Shown here piece after piece: positions 1 through 10,600 of a DNA stretch of 64,000 nucleotides. The first letter of the stretch is position 1. Every line of letters starts with the position of its first letter. The notes beneath the pieces were generated by a model that made no database searches, was not told where the DNA came from, and saw nothing but the letters and a program-made list of their open reading frames with translations. This stretch comes from Terriglobia bacterium (GTDB lineage: Bacteria; Acidobacteriota; Terriglobia; 2-12-FULL-54-10). The stretch is taken from assembly GCA_963666975.2 (NCBI GenBank), contig CAXVYR010000003.1, positions 768,001 to 832,000 on the forward strand. Reading direction: 5' to 3'. The position numbers and the translations under genes were made by a program.

Positions 1-146
1 CTGCCCTGAGCATAGCCGAAGGGAGTGAAGCCGAGGGATCAGCAAGCGGTCGCCGAACGCCCGGTGCGCAAACAAAGCTGGGTTGACCGCTCCATTACTG
101 TCCCATTCGGCAAGCTCAGGGCAGGCGCGGCTCGGATGGATTCACC
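1..146. repeat. REP/MITE-like intergenic repeat composite
   Basis: 41-146 resembles 54507-54590 (agcaagcgg..ccgaacgcc..caaagct..gttgaccgctcc..gcggctcggat..attcaccaaca). ctgccctgagc / gctcagggcag inverted motifs are present, with a similar motif near 57600. Confidence 0.6.
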
Positions 147-179
147 AACAATACACTTTACACCAATCCAGAAACCGCC

Positions 180-2447
180 CTAAAAGATCTCCGGGAAATA
201 ATAAGTCAATATGGTATTCAGCCGCATATCGGCCACAATGAGTTCCTTGTTCTTGGGATTCAAGGCCACTCCGCGCGGCTTCTTCAGCAGGCTCTTCGGC
301 CCCCCGATCTTCCAGCGGGGCGGCACGTCGCCGCTGTCGTTGATACTCCAAACGCCAACAAAAATTTCCTCCTCCGGCTCCATACCGCTGCCGCCGGGCT
401 GAGCCGCGACAATCCAGCCTTTCGGAGAATATATTTGGAGCTGATTAATGCGAGTAATGGCGGTCTGGGGACCATCGATCACGGTACGCGGCTTCACATT
501 CCCTTCGTCTGTGCGGTTAAACGTAAACAGAGCCCGGCCTACGCTGGTCACAATCACATTATGGACCGGATCAACGGCCAGCGTGGAAGTCCGCAATCGG
601 GTATCCGGCCCTTGGATCACACGGATCGGAGCCACATCGCCATTGCCTTCCCGGGGGAAAACCAGAATCCGGTCCACCGAGGGCACGAAGATTTCATTGT
701 GCACCGGATCAACATCCACCCGGTCCGGCCGCTTCAACTGTGTACTGGGGCCTTGGATGACCCGGATCGGAGGCTCCTCGCCATCGGCTCCTCCGCGGAA
801 AACCAGGATCGCCTGTGCAAAGGGGTTGGTTACGATGAATTCATCATGAACCGCGTCATAGCGAATGTCGTGCATGGTACGGCTTAAAAGAGTCTTTTGT
901 CCGGCAATCAGTCTGGTGGGCACCGCATTCTCCTCCGCCATCCTGGCGAAGGCCGCAATCTGCGGGTGGGCCACTCAGTTGGGCACCAGGATTTCCTCCC
1001 GCTTGCTGTCGTAGCCCGCAGCTCCTGGGTTCCCGATAGCCAGCGCCTGTTTGCCGAGCGGCGCGCTGCGGATGGTCCGCAGCGGCGCGACATCCCCGTT
1101 AGCCGCACGCGGAAAAACGGTGGCCGAATGGTTCCCCATGTTGGATACCCACATCTCATCGTTCTTCAAGTCCACAAAAATGCCGGTGGGGTTCTTGATA
1201 CCGGTCTTGGGCCCCTTGATGACCCGGGTGGGCGCCACGTCACCGCTGTCGGTCATACGAAAGACCAGGACCGAGTCGTCGGCGTCATTGGCGACGTAGA
1301 GTTCTCCGCGCTCGGAATCGACAAACATCGCCGCCGGCCAGTTCAGCTGGGTTTCAGGACCTTCAATCACCCGTAGCGGCGGCGTATCTCCCTCCGCTTT
1401 GATCGAATAGATGGAAATCGAAGGAGGATCAGACTGGCCGGAACCGCGTAGCGCACGGTCCCGGTCGAGCGGCCAATTTTCTTTGCGCTCCCTCCTTTGG
1501 GTAGGAAGTCCCGTTACAGCAATGTCTCCCTGGTCCGGACCCACATCGGGACGAACCTGATGGACTGAACCATGATTGCTGACAAACATCCAGTTATTCT
1601 TCGAGTCCACCGCAATGCCGTGCGGGTCTTCGAGTTCCGTCCGGTCGCCTTGCAGCAACCGCAGAGGCGCTTCGTCGTCCGCGGCCATCTTGTTGTACAC
1701 CACGACTGCGTTGTCGTGCTGGATCGTGAGGAACAACTCCTGATTTTGTTCATCGACAGCGATCCCGAAGGTCCCATGCGGCGTGGCCAACTCCCTTTTG
1801 GGCGGCACGTTCCCCCGGGCTTCGCGCCCGAAGATAACCAGCGTATTGACCGTGTCGTTGTTGACCGAATAAACATCTCCCGTATTCTGGTCCAAATACA
1901 GCCCGCAGTTGAACTCAAGCTTGGTCCGCAGTCCGCCCACCATGCGCTTCGGCTCGGTCATGGTGGCGTTGGGAGGAGTATTGTCCAGCCGGTTGAACAC
2001 CTTAAAACCGAACAGGTTTTCATCCTGCAGATAGACCTCGTTCGTATTGACGTCCACTGCCACGGCGCTGTAGGTGGGATAGGTGTCCCGGATCATCCGT
2101 ATCGGTTCCCGGTCGGCATCGACGGCAGGCCTGTCCTCATCGAGCGCCGGCGCGCTCCTGTTTGCCGCCATTTGCTCCTGCTGCAGCGCGGCCACCAGCG
2201 TGGTGTTCGTGCTGGCCGGCACCCACTGGCACATCTCCCCGCCCATCATGCCGTCTGCCATGGGCATGGGGTCGGAGGAAACCAGTTGGGGATACCCTGT
2301 GGGTCTGCGCAAGGCGGCCTCGGATGCCGCGCTCCATTCCCGCTGTTTCGCCTCCCCGGTAAACAGCACCCATGCGGCAACGGCAATTACCAGAGAGATC
2401 ACCGCAGTCACGCTGATTTTTTGTACCACGCACGATGCTCGGGCCAT
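180..2447 (-). CDS. Exported NHL-like beta-propeller repeat protein, copy 1; probable selenoprotein read through TGA at 975-977 (~755 aa, U491)
   Basis: ORFs 975..2477 and 180..974 are in the same frame, separated only by TGA. Repeats GIAVDxxxxELxVxN...IxVFxRxAxGDVAPxRxIxGPxTxL continue across the stop. GGAGG RBS precedes ATG 2447. N-terminal hydrophobic segment present. Confidence 0.8.
932..952 (-). promoter_or_regulatory. Putative bacterial SECIS hairpin (copy 1)
   Basis: mRNA CCUUCGCCA-GGA-UGGCGGAGG, a 9-bp stem with a GG-starting loop 31 nt after the UGA. Confidence 0.7.
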
Positions 2448-2505
2448 ACGAATTTCGCCTCCTTCCAAATCTGCCACTAAACGGAAACAGTTCGGCTGCT
2501 ATAAC

Positions 2506-2633
2506 AGGTTGTTGAAAAACGCCATTTGCCCGCTCCCTCACGGTCGCGGCTCGGAATGGGCGTGCTGATCTGGCTGCATTTGCCGAGCCGCGCGCGTTAG
2601 CAAGCGGACCCTGCACCAGTTTTTCAACAACCT
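2506..2633. mobile_element. MITE with 15-bp terminal inverted repeats
   Basis: AGGTTGTTGAAAAAC (2506-2520) and GTTTTTCAACAACCT (2619-2633). Internal REP-like motif cgctccctcacggtcgcggctcgg also occurs near 47860 and 54556. Confidence 0.75.
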
Positions 2634-2723
2634 CCTCAACGAAAGGCAAACAGCCGGGCTGTGGAAGCCTTGTGCCAGGCCTCCTGCCGGACTGCTTGCC
2701 AGAACAATCAAAGGACAATCAAA

Positions 2724-4949
2724 CTAAAATATTTCCGGAAAGTAATACGTTAACACGCTGTTCAACCGCATGTCGGCCACAATGACTTCTTTGTTCTTGG
2801 GGTCCAGCGCAATCCCCCGCGGCTTCTTCAGCATGCTCTTCGGCCCGCCGATCGTCCAGCGGGGCGGCACGTCGCCGCTGTCGTTAATGCTCCAAATACC
2901 GACAAAGACGTCTTCGGGCTCCTGTTCCGAGCTGAGGCCGGGCTGGGCCGCAATAATCCACCCTTTCGGCGGATAGACCCGAAGCTGGTTGATACGGATG
3001 ATGCGGGTCTTGGGGCCCGAAATTACGGCTTTCGGCTTGACGTTGCCATTGGCGGTGCGGTCGTAAATCAGCAGCGCCCCCGGAGGGCTGGTCCCGCCCC
3101 GGTGCTGGATTCCAACGATCAGCAAATCGTGGACCGGATCAATGGTCACTCCGCCGGTGTTCTTCAGCATCGTGTCAGGGCCGCGCAGCACCCGGATGGG
3201 AACCGTGTCGCCGTTCGCTTCCCGGGGATAGACCATCACCCGGTCGCTTTCGGGAATGTAGATTTCGTTGTTCACAGGATCAATCCCCAGGCGGTCCGGC
3301 CCATCCATCATGGTGCTGGGGCCCTGGATCACGCGCAGCGGAGGCTCCTCGCCGTCGGCTCCTCCCCGGAAGGTCAGCACGGCTTGCGCAAAGGGATTGG
3401 TGACGACGAACTCATCATGGATGGCGTCATAGGCGATGTCGTGCATGGTGCGCGCCAGCAGCGTCCGCTGCCCGGCCAGCAGTCGCGTAGGCTGCGTATT
3501 CTCCTTCCCCAGCCTGGGGAAGCTCGCAATCTGCGGATGGGCCACTCAGTTGGGCACCAGCACTTCTTCCCGCTTGCTGTCATAGCCCACCGCTCCCGGA
3601 TTCCCGATAGCCAGCGCCACCTTCCCTAGCGGGGCGCTGCGGATGGTGCGCAGCGGCGTCACGTCGCCGTTCGCTGTGCGGGGGTAAACCGTGGCGGAGT
3701 GGTTGCCCATGTTGGAGACCCACAGCTCATTGTTCTTGAAATCGACAAAAATCCCCGTGGGATACTTGATTCCAGTCTTCGGTCCCTTGACAATCCGCGT
3801 GGGCGCCACATTGCCGCTGTCGGTGGTGCGGAAGACCAGGATTGAATCATCGGCGTCGTTGGCGACGTACAGATCGCCGTTTTCCTCGTCCAGGTACATC
3901 GCCGCCGGCCAGTTCAACTGCGTTTGGGGACCCTCAATGATCCGAATGGGGGCCGTATCACCTTCCGCCTTCAGCGGATGAACCGTGATCGAGGGCGGCT
4001 GAAACTCGCCGGAGCCGGAAACCCTGCTGGCGTCCCAAAACCCGGTGGAGTTGTCAAAACCGGGGCTGTAGCTGACGCTGCCGTGGTTGGCCACAAACAT
4101 CCAGTTGTTCTTGGTGTCGATAGCAATGCCGTGAGCGTCTTCGAGCTGTGTACTCTTCCCTTCAAGCGTCCGAATCGGCTCTTCCCTGCCCTCGGCCATC
4201 TTGCGGTACACCACCACCTTGGGCGGGTGCTGCACGGTGAGGTACATCTCTTCGGCGCCCTCATCCACGGCGATGCCCCAGGTCCGGTGCGGAGTTCGCA
4301 ACTCGCGCTTGGGAGGCACGTTTCCGCTGGCCTCGCGCCCGAAAATCACCAAGGTGTCCACCGTGTCGTTGCTCACCGAGTAAACGTCGCCGCTTTTCGG
4401 GTCCACATAGAGTCCGCAATTAAACTCGAGCTTGGTGTTGATGCCTCCCACCATGCGCTTCGGCTCCGTCATGGTGGCGCTGGGCGGAGTGTTGTCCAGG
4501 CGGTTGAATACCTTGAAGCCGAACAGGTTCTCGTCCTGCAGATAAACCTCATCGGTGTTGGTATCGACGGCGACGGCGGCGTAGGTGGGGTAGGTGTCCC
4601 GAATAATTCGCGCCGGAGCGCGGTCCGCGTCGATGGTGGCGCCGGGGTCGACCGAGGTGCGGGCCTCGCCCTGCGGATGCCGCAGCGCGGCCAGCATAGT
4701 AATGTCGCCAGAGGTGGTATCGGCGCTGGCCGGCACCCACTGGCACATCTCCCCATTCATCCCCGGCATTTGCTCATAAGCAACCAATTGGGGATACCCT
4801 TTGGGCCTGCGCAGAGCAGCCTCGGATGCTGCGTACAACTGGGGCCGCTTTGCCTCACCGGCAAACAGCACCCAGGCAGCAGCGGCGGCCACCAAGCACA
4901 GCAAAGCCAGCAGGCTACTGCTCGGTCGCAAATGGAATCCTCGGTGCAT
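2724..4949 (-). CDS. Exported NHL-like beta-propeller repeat protein, copy 2; probable selenoprotein read through TGA at 3546-3548 (~741 aa, U468)
   Basis: ORFs 3546..4964 and 2724..3545 are in frame and joined by a single TGA at the same site as copy 1 (EVLVPN*VAHPQI). GGAGG precedes ATG 4949. Signal/TM segment present. Confidence 0.8.
3504..3522 (-). promoter_or_regulatory. Putative bacterial SECIS hairpin (copy 2)
   Basis: mRNA CUUCCCCA-GGC-UGGGGAAG, an 8-bp perfect stem with the loop 31 nt after the UGA. Compensatory pair change versus copy 1. Confidence 0.7.
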
Positions 4950-5012
4950 TGATACCTCCGTCAATGACGAGCATGAATACCCACAGCAGCTTCTACGGCG
5001 CGGTTTTGATCC

Positions 5013-5193
5013 TAGGAATAAACTTTTTGGCCTCCAGGCAGTTGAAAGTGTACATCCATTTGCATCCTACCGAGCACAACTTTTCCTCCGAGAGGGCCAT
5101 CGGCTCCCAGCCTCCCTTTCCGGATCCCCCAAAACCGTCCAATCAGCATCCAGAACCAGCTTTTTCAGACAACTCTCCATACCTGGGGGATAG
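5013..5193. repeat. Diverged repeat, likely IS-end remnant; second copy at ~15744-15923
   Basis: cagaaccagctttttcagaca..ccat.cctgggggatag is shared at 5151-5193 and 15881-15923, with weaker similarity upstream. Confidence 0.55.
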
Positions 5194-5339
5194 CGGCATC
5201 GTTTTCTTGTGTGCCGTAGCCCCGGCTATCCCGACGGGAGCGACAGCCCATCTATTCGCCCCAGCATGCTAGCAAATAAACGTCTCGTCAGATGGCTCTC
5301 TGCCAGCAATAGCCAATAGTAGCGGGCATGCTTAATCAG

Positions 5340-5450
5340 GCGTCCTCCTCACCAGCCGCTGCTGGAGGCTCGTCAAGGACCAGTTCCCGATTCTCTGTGG
5401 CACCACCAGCCGCCGCCAGCAGACGGCAATGATGGTCAGCCACATAGTTG
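5340..5450 (-). pseudogene. IS1380-family transposase C-terminal remnant
   Basis: Translation WRRLVVPQRIGNWSLTSLQQRLV resembles the recalled IS1380 transposase C-terminal motif WRRLVLPxxIxxWSLTSLQQRLVK. Confidence 0.6.
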
Positions 5451-5505
5451 GAGCGGAACCGATGGTCGCCAGACTGCTCTGCCGTCCCGGCTTATTATGG
5501 CTCGA

Positions 5506-5849
5506 TCGGCGCTGGCCGGCACCCACTGGCACACCCGTCGGGCCGTCTTCTCCCCATTCATCCCCGGCATTTGCTCATAAGCAACCAATTGGTAAACCTC
5601 CGCTTGGCAAAGGCCGCGTCAGCCCGAAACGCGATACCCTTTGGGCCTGCGCAGAGCAGCCTCGGATGCTGCGTACAACTGGGGCCGCTTTGCCTCACCG
5701 GCAAACAGCACCCAGGCAGCAGCGGCGGCCACCAAGCACAGCAAAGCCAGCAGGCTACTGCTCGGTCGCAAATGGAATCCTCGGTGCATTGATACCTCCG
5801 TCAATGAGAGCATGAATACCCACAGCAGCTTCTACGGCGCGGTTTTGAT
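5506..5849 (-). pseudogene. Degenerate duplicate of the 5' end and upstream region of propeller copy 2
   Basis: Near-identical to ~4720-5010, but with ~15-bp and ~40-bp insertions and a 1-bp deletion upstream of the RBS. Confidence 0.85.
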
Positions 5850-5918
5850 AGCTTTGATGCCAATTTTATCACAGGAGTTGACCCGCCCTGCGGGCTTTAT
5901 TCACTGGCCCTGCTAGCG

Positions 5919-5956
5919 AAAAAAACGGCCCCGAGGCTTGCATGCCAGGGGGCCGT
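5919..5956 (-). terminator. Rho-independent terminator
   Basis: Minus strand ACGGCCCC...GGGGCCGT followed by a T-run, just downstream of the TonB receptor fragment. Confidence 0.6.
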
Positions 5957-5983
5957 GTATGGAAGTTTGAAATTCAATGCAAG

Positions 5984-6415
5984 CTAGAAGATAAACTTCA
6001 AGCCAAACTGAATCTGCCGGGCCGAGGTGCGGGTGTCAAAAATCCGGGCCGCGTCGGCGTCCACTAAGCCCTCCTTCACGAGGTCCTTCCCTGCTGCGCG
6101 CGCCGCTGCAACATCTTCGGCGCCGGCGCCGAAATCAAAAGGATCCATAAATTTTCCACTTTCCGTCCCACCGAAATTGGGCCGGTTGAACAGGTTGAAG
6201 AACTCCGCCCGGAATTGGATCCGGGTGTTTCCCGTCACCTCGAAGTCCTTGAGGAACGACAGATCGAATGTAGCTATGCCCGGGCCGGTCACAGTGTTTC
6301 TGCCCGCAGTGCCGAAAAATCCCAGCTTGGAGGGGGCGAACTGGCTGATGTCATAGTACCGGTCCGGGCCGCCCAGCACCGGGTTGTTATCACCGCCCTT
6401 GACAAAAGCAAGGCT
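5984..6415 (-). pseudogene. C-terminal fragment of an Oar-like TonB-dependent receptor
   Basis: GRNTVTGPG..FDLSFLKDF..IQFRAEFFNLFNRPNF..ARQIQFGLKFIF. The 5' part is replaced by IS1-like sequence. Confidence 0.85.
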
Positions 6416-6828
6416 TGGCATTGGAATGAGGTGTGGCGCGCCTCGGAGAATTCGCGGAAGCTAAATACTTCCTACATCGAACGTTTGAACCGGACCATCC
6501 GGCAGGGCCCTGCCTACCTCGGGCGTCGGACCCTCAGCCACGCTCGGCGTTCTCGGCGGCTGGAAGATCATCTCGAGCTGCTGCGACGCCATGACAACTT
6601 TCGCAGGCCTCATCGTGCTCTGAAGTTTGGACACGAAGTCAAAACCCCGGCGATGCAGGCAGGCCTGACCCAAAAGCGGCTGACGTTCCGCGATGTCTTC
6701 ACGTCCATCCCAAACTTTTTGTGCTTGGTCAGGACCGTCTGTGTGTTCATCTTCCACGCGAATTCGCCCGGCCGGGAAGACTCGCCGATTTCAGGGGCTG
6801 CTTAACAACATTTGATTGCGGAAGCATC
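6416..6828 (+). mobile_element. IS1-family transposase 3' remnant with terminal IR
   Basis: NTSYIERLNRTIRQ..LGRRTLSHAR..NFRRPH. Nearly identical (inverted) to 23452-23860. Ends in gattgcggaagca. Confidence 0.75.
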
Positions 6829-6902: not shown

Positions 6903-7631
6903 TTAGTGCTGCCGGTGGACTTCCGTATGGTCGATTGTCCCGTCGCGGAACTGAAGGACGATGTCGCCTCGGGCACCGACGGCCGGATCGTGCGTCGCGA
7001 TAAGGACGGTCTTTTTGAAGCCATGTGCCAGGGAGACGAGCAAGTCGGTCAGGATCATCGCGTTCTTGCTATCCAGGTTGCCCGTCGGCTCGTCGGCGAG
7101 AATCAGCATGGGGTCGTTCACGAGGGCGAGCGCCGCCGCTACCCGTTGCTGCTCGCCGCCGCTTAATTCGTCAGGGCGCTTCAGAGCTTTCTTGTCCAAA
7201 TCGACAAGCTTCAGCAGGGCGTGGGCGCGCTCGACTCGGTCGCGATGCTTCATTCCTGATACCGTCATAGGGAGCTGTAGATTGTCCAACGCGTTGAGCC
7301 CTGGGATCAGGTTGAACGCCTGGAAAATGAAACCAACCTCCTCCAGGCGGTAGCGCGCCAAATCGCGCTCCGTGATGTTGCCGTTGAGCTGCCAGTTGCC
7401 CACCTGGATCTTTCCGGAATCAGACCGGTCGATGCCCCCCAAGAGATTCAAGAAGGTCGTCTTTCCACAACCGCTCGGCCCCTGGATAATCATCACGGCG
7501 CCTCTGTTGACGTCGCAAGTGACGCCCTGTAGGGCCTGATGTGTCTCCTCCCCAGTCCGGTACGTCTTCACAACGTTTTCTACACTGATGTCCAGGCCTT
7601 CCTGTTTGAATAAATTGGTGTGTAATGTCAT
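6903..7631 (-). CDS. ABC transporter ATP-binding protein (LolD/MacB type)
   Basis: Walker A GPSGCGKT, signature LSGGEQQRV, Walker B ILADEPTGNLD, H-loop ATHD. Confidence 0.95.
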   Translation of the reverse strand: MTLHTNLFKQEGLDISVENVVKTYRTGEETHQALQGVTCDVNRGAVMIIQGPSGCGKTTFLNLLGGIDRSDSGKIQVGNWQLNGNITERDLARYRLEEVGFIFQAFNLIPGLNALDNLQLPMTVSGMKHRDRVERAHALLKLVDLDKKALKRPDELSGGEQQRVAAALALVNDPMLILADEPTGNLDSKNAMILTDLLVSLAHGFKKTVLIATHDPAVGARGDIVLQFRDGTIDHTEVHRQH

Positions 7632-7638
7632 GATGCCT

Positions 7639-10600
7639 CTATCGCTCTTTAATTGCTTCCCGCGCCGTCTTGCGGACCGGCCATAAGCCGAATCCGACCG
7701 AAATCGCAGCCAGAACTACGGTGAACACGAGGACACTGGCCGCCGCCGCCAGAGTCAAAACGAGACGGTTTGAGAGTAACCCCGCCACTCCGAGGACACG
7801 GGGGAGATCCCAGATTGCCTGCGACAGCCCGTAGCCGGAGATGATGCCCAGGAGAACTCCCATCGCCAGCCCTGCCAGGACCGGTGTGAGAAACATGGCA
7901 ATGGAAATTCGCAACAACATCGAGATCGGCACGCCGCGCAAGCGCAGCAGGCCGAACGTCAGCCGATCGGCTAAAAAGTTGGCGAAGCCAATCGCGCTCA
8001 CACTCGCTAGCGCGAGGATGAGCCCGCCGAACATGAACACCTTCATATTTTCCAAAGCGAGCGAAATGAACATGTCCTTGCCGACCCGCTGGCGCTCCGC
8101 GGCTTCCCATCGGACCCCTTGCGGACGCATCGGAAGCTTTTCAGTAATGTCCGCAACGAACTGATCATCTACCTCGCCGGACCGCGTGCGGACCACGAAC
8201 ACCGATCGTGAGGGCAGCACGGCAAGTCTCGCCAGCCCGGTCCGCGCGAATTCTGCGCTGGTAATCATACGGGCATCCGACCGCAGCATGTAATTGAGAT
8301 AATCCACTTCAGCGGAGACGAATCCCTCGCGATCAGACACGCCTGTGGACGGCTGGCCGGGCAGAAACGCCACGACATCGCGGAATTGTACGGGCATCGG
8401 CGTCTCGCTGCCATAGCCCAGAATCACATCGCGGTCGAGTGGGATTTTCCGCAGTCGCAGCAATCCTTGGGAGGCCGTAACCGTGGTGTCCGTTAGGCCA
8501 TCGATAATCTGGCGGAACGGACGTGTCAGGCCGAGAGTTTCTTCGTAGTACACCGTGTTAATGTAGTCCTGGGGCATGTCCACAATGTTCAGAATGAGGC
8601 CACTCTGTCCCGGAATGTAAACGCCGGGAACGACGAACTGCTGAATGGTAGTGACGGAGGACACTCGCGGGTCGCTTTGCAGCACCTCCTTGATGGAAGC
8701 TATCGCCGTCGCCACCGTGCGTTCGTATTCGGCGATGGTCCGTACTGTCGCTTCGCCATCGCTGAGCTCGGTCATGTTGTATTCAATATGCAGGTCACCG
8801 CCAACAGACACCCGAATACCGCGAAGGACGCGACCGTAGAACGTGTCAGCGGCAACCTGTGGCAATAGCGTGATCGCCATCGCGAGCGCCGCGACGAACA
8901 GCACTGCGACGACGCGACCCCTGCGGAGCGCCATGTGCTGTCCCACGAACCAGCGCAAGCTGCCGACCAACGGCACCGTGATCGCACTCAGCCCCTCTTG
9001 GATCCACCTCACACGCCAACTGAACAGACCGGTAAGGCCGAAGAGAAATAGCGGCACAGCGATGAAGTTTAAGACGATTTCGCTGATGAACAAAACCGGC
9101 ACCAGCGATTCACGGGTTGGTCCTATCCAGCGTGCGGCCAGAGAGTAGCCCGCAATCCACGATGCCACCTTGTAACCGCCGAGAATCAGAGCGAGGAAGC
9201 TCGTTACGATGTACGCCCTCGACATTCGGGTGGCGCGCTCCTCGACGTCCGTGCCGAGCACGCGGGTCAGGGCCTCGCGTGGAGTCATCCGCCGCACATA
9301 CCGCAGAATCGTGTAGCCCGACAGCAGAGCGAAGAAGACGCCCAGGATCACAAACCCTGCGAAGAACACCAAGCCCCGCACGAAAACCGGCATCGTTGGC
9401 ATTAAGTGTCCTGCGAGACTGTATCCGATGATGGGAACGAGCGTCCCGAGAAAGAGTCCGACTAAGCTGCCGGCTAACCCTCCGGCGAGCAGGGCGAGCA
9501 GAAGTGTGCTCGACACGGCGTTCATCGGTATTCCTCGGACCAATGCGAGACCCACCATGCGACGCTCGTTCAAGATCAGCAGACCGCTCAAGTTTCGTGC
9601 CAGCACCCAGCCGAGCCACAAAAGCGGGACGGCAACGAGTACCGTCACTAGTTGAACGAGCCGGGCATTGGCGCTCATGCGCTCTAAGGCGTTTTTCAGG
9701 TCGCTATTGACATAAGCGAACGGCGTGAGCTGGTGGGCGGTCTCCTGCACCGTACTGACCAACGGCTCCACTCTGGCAAGGCTTGCATCGAGCTCCCAAG
9801 GGGAGACCCAGCGAGACCGATCGACGGCGAGTAAGTGCGATACTTCGGGAACATAAGGAGGCGGTGCTTCGCCGCCGTGGATACCTTCGGAGGAGAGAAA
9901 CATCTCGCCCATCTGATTTGCTAGATTTGCGAATACATCCAGGGGCAGGGAAATCACAATCGCTTCTTCGGGCAGGTAGGTCAGGGACCCGACTTCCCGC
10001 AGCATCCACTTGTTAAATTCCTGTCGCTCAAGCTGAACCGGCGGCGTCATTACAGAGGCCTGAAAAAGCGTCTGGCCGCCCCCGATAGGCACAAGGTGAT
10101 CCCCTGGGCCGTGATCGTGATCATGCTCTTCTTCAACTTCTCCAATCACGGCAAGGCGCACCGAACTGCCTGCCCGCACACGTTTACTGGCCTCAAATAC
10201 TTCGGTACCCCGGCCTGCGCCGCGTTGGGCTGCAACAAGAGCAAGCTGGTAAGGGACGGGCGCCGTGCCAGGGCTGGTGCGCCGCAATTCTGGTGGAAGT
10301 AATTCCGTCTGGGATGCCGCGATAAAAGCCACCCAGCGAACAGGAAACTCTGCCTGATCAATCTCGATCCGGAGCGGGCTCGTGTTGCGCACCCGCAGGA
10401 ATCCGATATTTTCAAGCCGCTGGATGCCCTCCAGCCGCTCCAGACTTTCGCGCATTTCTATAAACCGATGCGCCTCGCCTCGCTGCACAACCGAGATGTC
10501 CCACGGCATTCGCTGGAGTTGATCTGTAACGTAGCCTTCGATGGCATATCCTGATGTCAGGTACAGCGACGCCAGAATGGCAACCGACAGCATCGAGACG

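Follow-up and report, generated by a model that had tools for sequence, protein, structure and literature searches.

Hairpins after in-frame UGA codons in tandem beta-propeller genes of a Terriglobia bacterium: a probable SECIS element within the coding region

In a 64,000-nucleotide (nt) stretch of a Terriglobia bacterium genome (assembly GCA_963666975.2, contig CAXVYR010000003.1, positions 768,001 to 832,000; here called the window), two adjacent paralogous genes are each crossed by a single in-frame TGA, and small RNA hairpins can be drawn downstream of both. The locus raises the question of what these hairpins are. Do they form a selenocysteine insertion sequence (SECIS), which would allow the UGA to be read as selenocysteine (Sec), or do they simply follow from the encoded peptide, or serve the messenger in some other way? 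An earlier reading of the window, made from the sequence only, had inferred from one compensatory pair between the two copies that RNA structure is under selection at this site and that this supports recoding. One such pair between two paralogs is thin support by itself, but the proposal is upheld on 146 TGA-type genes. Judging from sequence comparison, the hairpins at 932-952 and 3504-3522 of the minus strand are very probably the core of a bacterial SECIS element (bSECIS) lying inside the coding region. The hairpin provides independent evidence, at the RNA level, that the "split" propeller open reading frames (ORFs), which gene callers cut in two at the TGA, are single selenoprotein genes.

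Hairpins downstream of the two UGA codons

The two genes are tandem paralogs, both on the minus strand and with a single TGA apiece. Their features, in window coordinates, are as follows.

180..2477, minus strand: gene 1, a 765-codon frame for an apparently exported tandem beta-propeller protein, with one in-frame TGA (U501), from the ORF translation
975..977, minus strand: putative Sec-UGA codon of gene 1; 81 database homologs have cysteine (Cys) at this position, and 17 loci have TGC or TGT
953..965, minus strand: mini-hairpin 1 of gene 1, CCGCA-GAU-UGCGG, 5 base pairs (bp), loop 14 nt after the UGA, -5.6 kcal/mol
932..952, minus strand: proposed SECIS core of gene 1 (hairpin 2), with 9 bp in the stem and an A-U pair closing the apical GGA loop, -14.8 kcal/mol
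2724..4964, minus strand: gene 2, about 70% identical to its paralog gene 1 and likewise with a single in-frame TGA (U473)
3546..3548, minus strand: putative Sec-UGA codon of gene 2
3525..3535, minus strand: mini-hairpin 1 of gene 2, CGCA-GAU-UGCG, 4 bp, -3.5 kcal/mol
3504..3522, minus strand: hairpin 2 of gene 2, loop GGC on a stem of 8 bp, a C-G pair swapped for G-C and the peptide FPRLGK, -12.9 kcal/mol

After each TGA the order is GUG-GCC-CAY, the mini-hairpin, then hairpin 2. The copy 1 hairpin described in the sequence-only reading, CUUCGCCA-GGA-UGGCGGAG, lies at 951-933, and one more C-G pair extends it to the 952-932 given there; its counterpart in copy 2, CUUCCCCA-GGC-UGGGGAAG, lies at 3522-3504. 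In both copies 31 nt separate the A of the UGA from the first G of the loop, as had been claimed, and an AGG arginine codon is the source of the loop GG. The differences between the copies are likewise as described: stem pair 5 is G-C in copy 1 and C-G in copy 2, pair 3 is U-G in copy 1 and U-A in copy 2, and the translations change from FARMAE to FPRLGK. The small CGCA-GAU-UGCG hairpin that had been placed between the UGA and the main stem was found at 965-953 and 3535-3525, and RNAfold predicts both hairpins in 60- and 81-nt contexts. A longer lower stem around both hairpins, which appears in the single-sequence fold of copy 1, is unsupported by the alignment fold and was set aside.

Among 200 dinucleotide shuffles of each isolated hairpin 2, none folded as well as copy 1 and 13 folded as well as copy 2. 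Taken alone, the two copies in the window are only modestly beyond chance, suggestive rather than decisive, and it is therefore the comparative data that carry the significance.

Covariation and codon choice in the family

The window's genome holds nine paralogs, the others being 54-72% identical to gene 1, and in all nine a single TGA occupies the same site and is followed by the same two hairpins. A loose hairpin pattern run across the genome gave 158 matches; the 11 with a TGA at the expected offset are the nine paralogs and two sites that fit by chance, out of context. Species-representative genomes, scanned with a 12-sequence alignment as the seed, yielded 256 confirmed stretches, of which the best 80 were used (79 loci in 28 assemblies). 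By their labels these are mostly Acidobacteria or Terriglobia, with three Candidatus Binatia and one each of Verrucomicrobiia and Vicinamibacterales. Together with the loci of the window's genome and one relative from a phylum sample, they make up 93 distinct sites of the TGA type and 2 of the Cys type. With Cys-type proteins as seeds, a scan of metagenomes brought up at least 574 stretches, the best 80 of which added 54 TGA-type and 15 TGC-type sites. The pooled, de-duplicated set contains 146 distinct Sec-type (TGA) and 17 Cys-type sequences, and the offset from the UGA site to the hairpin is identical in all of them, without a single indel. An even sample of the window's phylum has the family in just 2 of 401 genomes, the window's genome included, and so offered little for comparison; the family clusters in a few lineages, each with many copies.

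The hairpin is kept in the other TGA homologs, as selection on the RNA would lead one to expect: 145 of the 146 fold at -7.5 kcal/mol or below, at the same offset. On the 93-sequence alignment the two-hairpin structure leaves 94.5% of cells paired. None of 500 column shuffles reached this value or the real covariation score, and sliding the partners by 1-3 columns gave only 32-51% pairing. RNAalifold independently predicts both hairpins, plus one more basal pair, with eight consecutive pairs in hairpin 2 (columns 38-45 with 51-58), or nine if the closing A-U is counted. In the basal pair of hairpin 2, the third base of codon +8, a synonymous position, is matched with the third base of codon +14 (counting from the Sec codon as 0), and the pair types among 92 sequences are CG 34, AU 16, GC 9, UA 9, GU 2 and UG 2, with 20 unpaired.

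Because related sequences inflate covariation counts, we used a parsimony count on a tree of 141 Sec-type genes, built from the 130 codons to either side after codons 0 to +16 had been taken out. Hairpin 2 shows at least 22 double changes with pairing kept, at three stem pairs and mostly synonymous: 15 Watson-Crick-to-Watson-Crick changes at the basal pair (+8/+14), 5 from TTC/GCG to TTT/GCA, both sides synonymous, and 2 at the G-C to C-G pair. The last is the swap that the sequence-only reading had singled out as costing amino acids (Ala to Pro, Ala to Gly); it has two origins on the tree, and the C-G form of copy 2 is also seen in loci L044 and L108. The synonymous swaps support RNA pairing more strongly than this amino-acid-changing one. 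Hairpin 1 has one double change by the same count, and compensatory variants of it, CCGAG...CUCGG or CCGAG...UUCGG, occur in two loci.

Codon choice points the same way. A scan of 261 aligned codons, 173 of them columns with a conserved degenerate residue, put codon homozygosity at or above 0.85 for the Sec codon and six others only: +4 CCG, +7 GCG, +9 TTC, +10 GCC, +11 AGG and +13 GCG; +1 GTG (0.82) and +5 CAG (0.81) come next, and all other columns are at 0.77 or below. In hairpin 1, codon +4 is CCG in 145 and codon +7 is GCG in 141 of the 146 Sec-type genes. Codon +11, which supplies the loop, is AGG in 137 of the 146, compared with 121 of the 2299 Arg codons (5%) elsewhere in the same genes. 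The nine other codons at this position are CGT, CGG, AGT and GGT, and all 146 genes have G as second base and G or T as third base of the codon, so that the loop motif G[G|U] is present in every one.

One alternative is that the hairpin is a by-product of the peptide F-A-R-L/M-A-D/E/K together with GC-rich codon bias, with no selection on the RNA at all. The peptide FAR[LM]A is indeed conserved in many Cys-type proteins too, and when the same peptides are recoded synonymously with the codon usage of the family, 6.3 of 9 positions still pair on average. The recoded sequences, however, have a median of -5.8 kcal/mol against -12.5 kcal/mol for the real ones, and equal the real stability in just 4.2% of 7300 trials. 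Near-fixed codon choice is confined to the hairpin stretch, AGG is scarce among Arg codons elsewhere, the third position of +8 covaries with that of +14 via all four Watson-Crick pairs, and the constraints relax in Cys-type genes with the same peptide. We give next to no credence to a by-product origin, and regard the pairing itself as what is selected.

Outside both hairpins, the Val codon at +1 (window 972-974 and 3543-3545) also shows a Sec-specific preference: 131 of 146 Sec-type genes use GTG there, against 7 of 17 Cys-type genes and 42% GTG in the family's Val background.

Cys-type homologs, selenocysteine machinery and known SECIS elements

Full-length Cys forms of the propeller protein exist: the best 120 database proteins comprise 81 with Cys, one with Trp (W) and 38 outside the motif pattern. 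The Trp form is P0004, a JGI metagenome protein in which the TGA is translated as Trp (LVPNWVAHPQ); its source had evidently applied another genetic code at the stop. Among the 17 Cys-type loci, nine have CGC at codon +11, three AGG and two AGA; at codon +7, eight have GCG and seven GCC; and nine have GTC at codon +1. The hairpin is not equally present in these genes, a comparison on which the sequence-only reading had staked its claim: their median is -7.5 kcal/mol, against -12.5 kcal/mol in the Sec-type genes, and 9 of the 17 pass the -7.5 threshold. With midpoint rooting, the tree has Sec at its root and about five origins of Cys. The stem has decayed in four of the five Cys lineages, which keep only 4-7 of the 9 stem pairs.

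The window's genome (4.23 Mb in 4 contigs, completeness 98.9%) encodes selB (C4:1014993-1016933; 371.8 bits, over the cut-off), selA (563.5 bits), selD (349.5 bits, with its own in-frame TGA) and a tRNA-Sec (72.8 bits), which ARAGORN calls as tRNA-SeC with anticodon TCA. As selA, selB, selD and tRNA-Sec(UCA) are all encoded, the organism is able to decode Sec. Outside the window, one in-frame TGA each is found in four AhpC/TSA-type (Prx) genes (C4:1246630, C4:418868, C4:1108689, C4:863703), a SelW-like (Rdx) gene (C3:117756) and selD (C4:1360322). A Sec-type formate dehydrogenase was not found in this genome, the five matches to TIGR01553 being all below the cut-off and none with a TGA. The propeller family accounts for 9 of the 15 selenoprotein genes detected. 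The selD gene, the SelW-like gene and three of the four Prx genes have hairpins of 5-7 bp with triloops GGU, GUU, GUU, GUG and GGA, 17-22 nt after the UGA. Like these, the propeller hairpins are simple, lie downstream of the UGA and have a three-base loop starting G-G or G-U, and presumably one SelB reads both kinds; unlike them, the propeller hairpins have stems of 8-10 bp, a loop at 31 nt and a mini-hairpin before.

A real RNA structure might still have another role, such as near-cognate read-through (Trp or Cys at the UGA), pausing for folding or export, or mRNA stability. The Trp at the UGA of P0004 is what such read-through would give, and one Cys lineage does retain the stem. But the genome has the complete Sec machinery, the UGA aligns with Cys, which is the usual counterpart of Sec, and the constraint is lost once UGA becomes UGC. 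The loop, moreover, fits G[G|U] in 146 of 146 genes and resembles the loops of the known-type selenoproteins in the same genome. A role other than Sec insertion thus seems to us quite improbable, and we return to the hairpin as a SECIS.

Section 5 of PMC13188914 and the legend of its Fig. 2A restate the bSECIS consensus of Zhang and Gladyshev. In it, an apical loop of 3-9 nt sits on a stem of 4-16 bp, and at least one of the first two loop bases is G, mostly in the pattern N1-G-[G|U]-N-N2, where N1 pairs with N2. The loop lies 16-37 nt from the UGA, and the minimum free energy (MFE) is -7.5 kcal/mol or below; the Fig. 2A legend agrees with the form in which the sequence-only reading had quoted it (an early loop G, 16-37 nt from the UGA). 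The propeller element has a loop of 3 nt (GGN), or 5 nt if the A-U pair opens, on stems of 9 and 8 bp. Its loop reads A-G-G-N-U, with the flanking A-U pair in 86 of 92 sequences, its spacing is 31 nt, constant across ungapped alignments, and its MFE is -14.8 and -12.9 kcal/mol in the two copies. Its genomic setting is also that of a bSECIS, immediately 3' of an in-frame UGA whose counterpart in homologs is Cys, in a genome with Sec machinery. It differs from the consensus in the small conserved hairpin that fills the spacer between UGA and stem, in the fixing of the first codon after the UGA as GUG, and in being near-identical over more than 140 genes, so that primary sequence is constrained besides shape. 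As a SECIS, the propeller element is of the ordinary bacterial type, with comparative support that is unusually strong.

The two-hairpin arrangement leaves room for SelB to bind hairpin 1 (CCGCA-GAU-UGCGG) instead, hairpin 2 being accessory or unrelated. Hairpin 1 is equally conserved, as its near-fixed CCG (145/146) and GCG (141/146) codons attest, it has compensatory variants of its own, and its loop is closer to the 17-22 nt of the other selenoprotein genes in the genome. That loop, however, starts 13-14 nt after the UGA, under the consensus range of 16-37 nt, and is GAU rather than G[G|U]; the hairpin is weak, both copies lying above the -7.5 threshold. With the UGA in the A site, hairpin 1 would also be at the mRNA entrance and probably unwound, which again counts against it. 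We assign SelB binding to hairpin 2 because hairpin 1 falls short in spacing, motif and energy, and consider recognition of hairpin 1 by SelB highly unlikely.

The SECIS of Escherichia coli fdhF is one long stem-loop right after the UGA, with a bulged U, and its apical part is bound by SelB. The propeller element is similarly a stem-loop within the ORF after the UGA, and the loop GGUCU of loci L137 and L142 resembles that of fdhF. Unlike fdhF, the propeller genes have two separate hairpins, and no conserved bulge was seen.

We infer that SelB binds the messenger and that Sec is incorporated at the propeller UGA. As the UGA enters the A site, the 8-10 bp stem, 22-23 nt downstream, would stay folded outside the mRNA channel, where its apical A-GG-N-U loop could be bound by SelB carrying GTP and Sec-tRNA(Sec). 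SelB would then deliver Sec in competition with release factor 2, and each gene would give one exported tandem beta-propeller selenoprotein of about 750 residues. Mini-hairpin 1 and the fixed GUG after the UGA would be accessory parts of the signal. A more specific proposal is that this is a bipartite bSECIS variant in an uncatalogued exported family, with the SelB hairpin unusually far away (31 nt) and dependent on the mini-hairpin at the ribosome entrance and on the fixed GUG, which would set the spacing or slow the ribosome. We advance this only tentatively, and think it somewhat doubtful.

Several findings weigh against this reading of hairpin 2 as a SECIS core. The main one, against a strictly Sec-only role, is a single Cys lineage (4 loci) that keeps 9 of 9 pairs, with AGG kept in two of the four loci and AGA in the other two. 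The stem can perhaps outlast the UGA for a time, or it may have a value of its own at the protein or RNA level; a recent switch from Sec to Cys that left a fossil SECIS would look like this lineage. Since the sequences share ancestry and each scan contributed only its best 80 hits, the counts given here are not independent samples. The basal pair of hairpin 2 is open in 20 of 92 sequences, and the isolated hairpin of copy 2, as noted, is equalled by 13 of 200 shuffles. The 31-nt spacing is some 10 nt longer than the 17-22 nt of the other genes in the genome, yet within the published 16-37 nt. An Rfam 15 scan of window positions 1-6000, with E values up to 10, gave three chance-level matches, none at the hairpins.

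The propeller product and its surroundings

The likely true start of gene 1 is a Met at about 2447, M11 being almost invariant in the alignment; the start of gene 2 is uncertain, either a TTG at 4964 or an ATG at about 4949. Pfam gives weak NHL and Lactonase (propeller) matches to the host protein and nothing else, and NCBIfam gives nothing above its cut-off, with only sub-threshold YncE and lactonase matches. An AlphaFold2 (AF2) model of the gene 1 product, made with a 12-sequence alignment, has a mean pLDDT of 79.8 and runs from an N-terminal helix through a disordered linker into a region that is mostly strands; the Sec sits between the strands at 495-500 and 506-511. In this model the helix may be a membrane anchor. 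Foldseek comparison of the model with the PDB found generic tandem propellers only (WD40 and LRP-type, TM about 0.3), with no functional lead. The protein appears to be exported and is not of the thioredoxin fold. A Cys, C83, and the motif U-V-x-H-P-Q are invariant in the family, and the protein may have a redox role.

The family appears to be uncatalogued. Table 1 of PMC13188914 (2026, 119 prokaryotic selenoprotein families) has no beta-propeller, NHL or lactonase-like entry, and the terms propeller, NHL, lactonase and YncE are absent from the main texts of PMC13188914, PMC13326102 and PMC12013277 (a review, BSepDB and deep-Sep). A full-text literature search returned no title or abstract opening that describes such a family. 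The near-invariant element offers a ready search pattern for correcting annotations, and the natural compensatory and Cys-type variants are material for the study of SelB recognition and of SECIS decay after the loss of Sec.

Two minus-strand neighbours adjoin gene 2, at window 5984-6421 and 6903-7631: an ORF whose only match is to the C-terminal end of the outer-membrane beta-barrel domain PF25183 (profile positions 745-826 of 838), and an ABC-transporter ATPase. Five larger ORFs nearby (282-1005 amino acids) have no Pfam match at 1e-5, and those of 282 and 408 amino acids overlap on opposite strands. The 5' end of gene 2 and its upstream flank (window 4748-5010) are repeated about 840 nt away, at 5549-5849, in three 100% identical pieces of 44, 175 and 42 nt; this second copy (L036) is a fragment of a gene start with a TGA in it. 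The repeat may have arisen by duplication, be the scar of an insertion or reflect an artefact of assembly. For the last 135 codons of gene 1 there is also a 99% identical copy on the small contig C1 (8699 nt; 7731-8135 and about 6772), and the sequence beside this copy is the same as at C3:767224. Overlapping assembly at the left edge of the window, or a recent duplication there, is the probable cause.

Elsewhere in the genome, and nowhere within the window, we noticed a short, GC-rich palindromic repeat that looks like the repetitive extragenic palindromic (REP) type, reading GGGGCGAAAG...CTTTCGCCCC and then CTGGGGCTTGGGGTAATA-like sequence. It occurs at no fewer than 7 sites: C2:178046, C3:158317, C3:600907, C4:376365, C4:1113563, C4:1362104 and C4:2159778.

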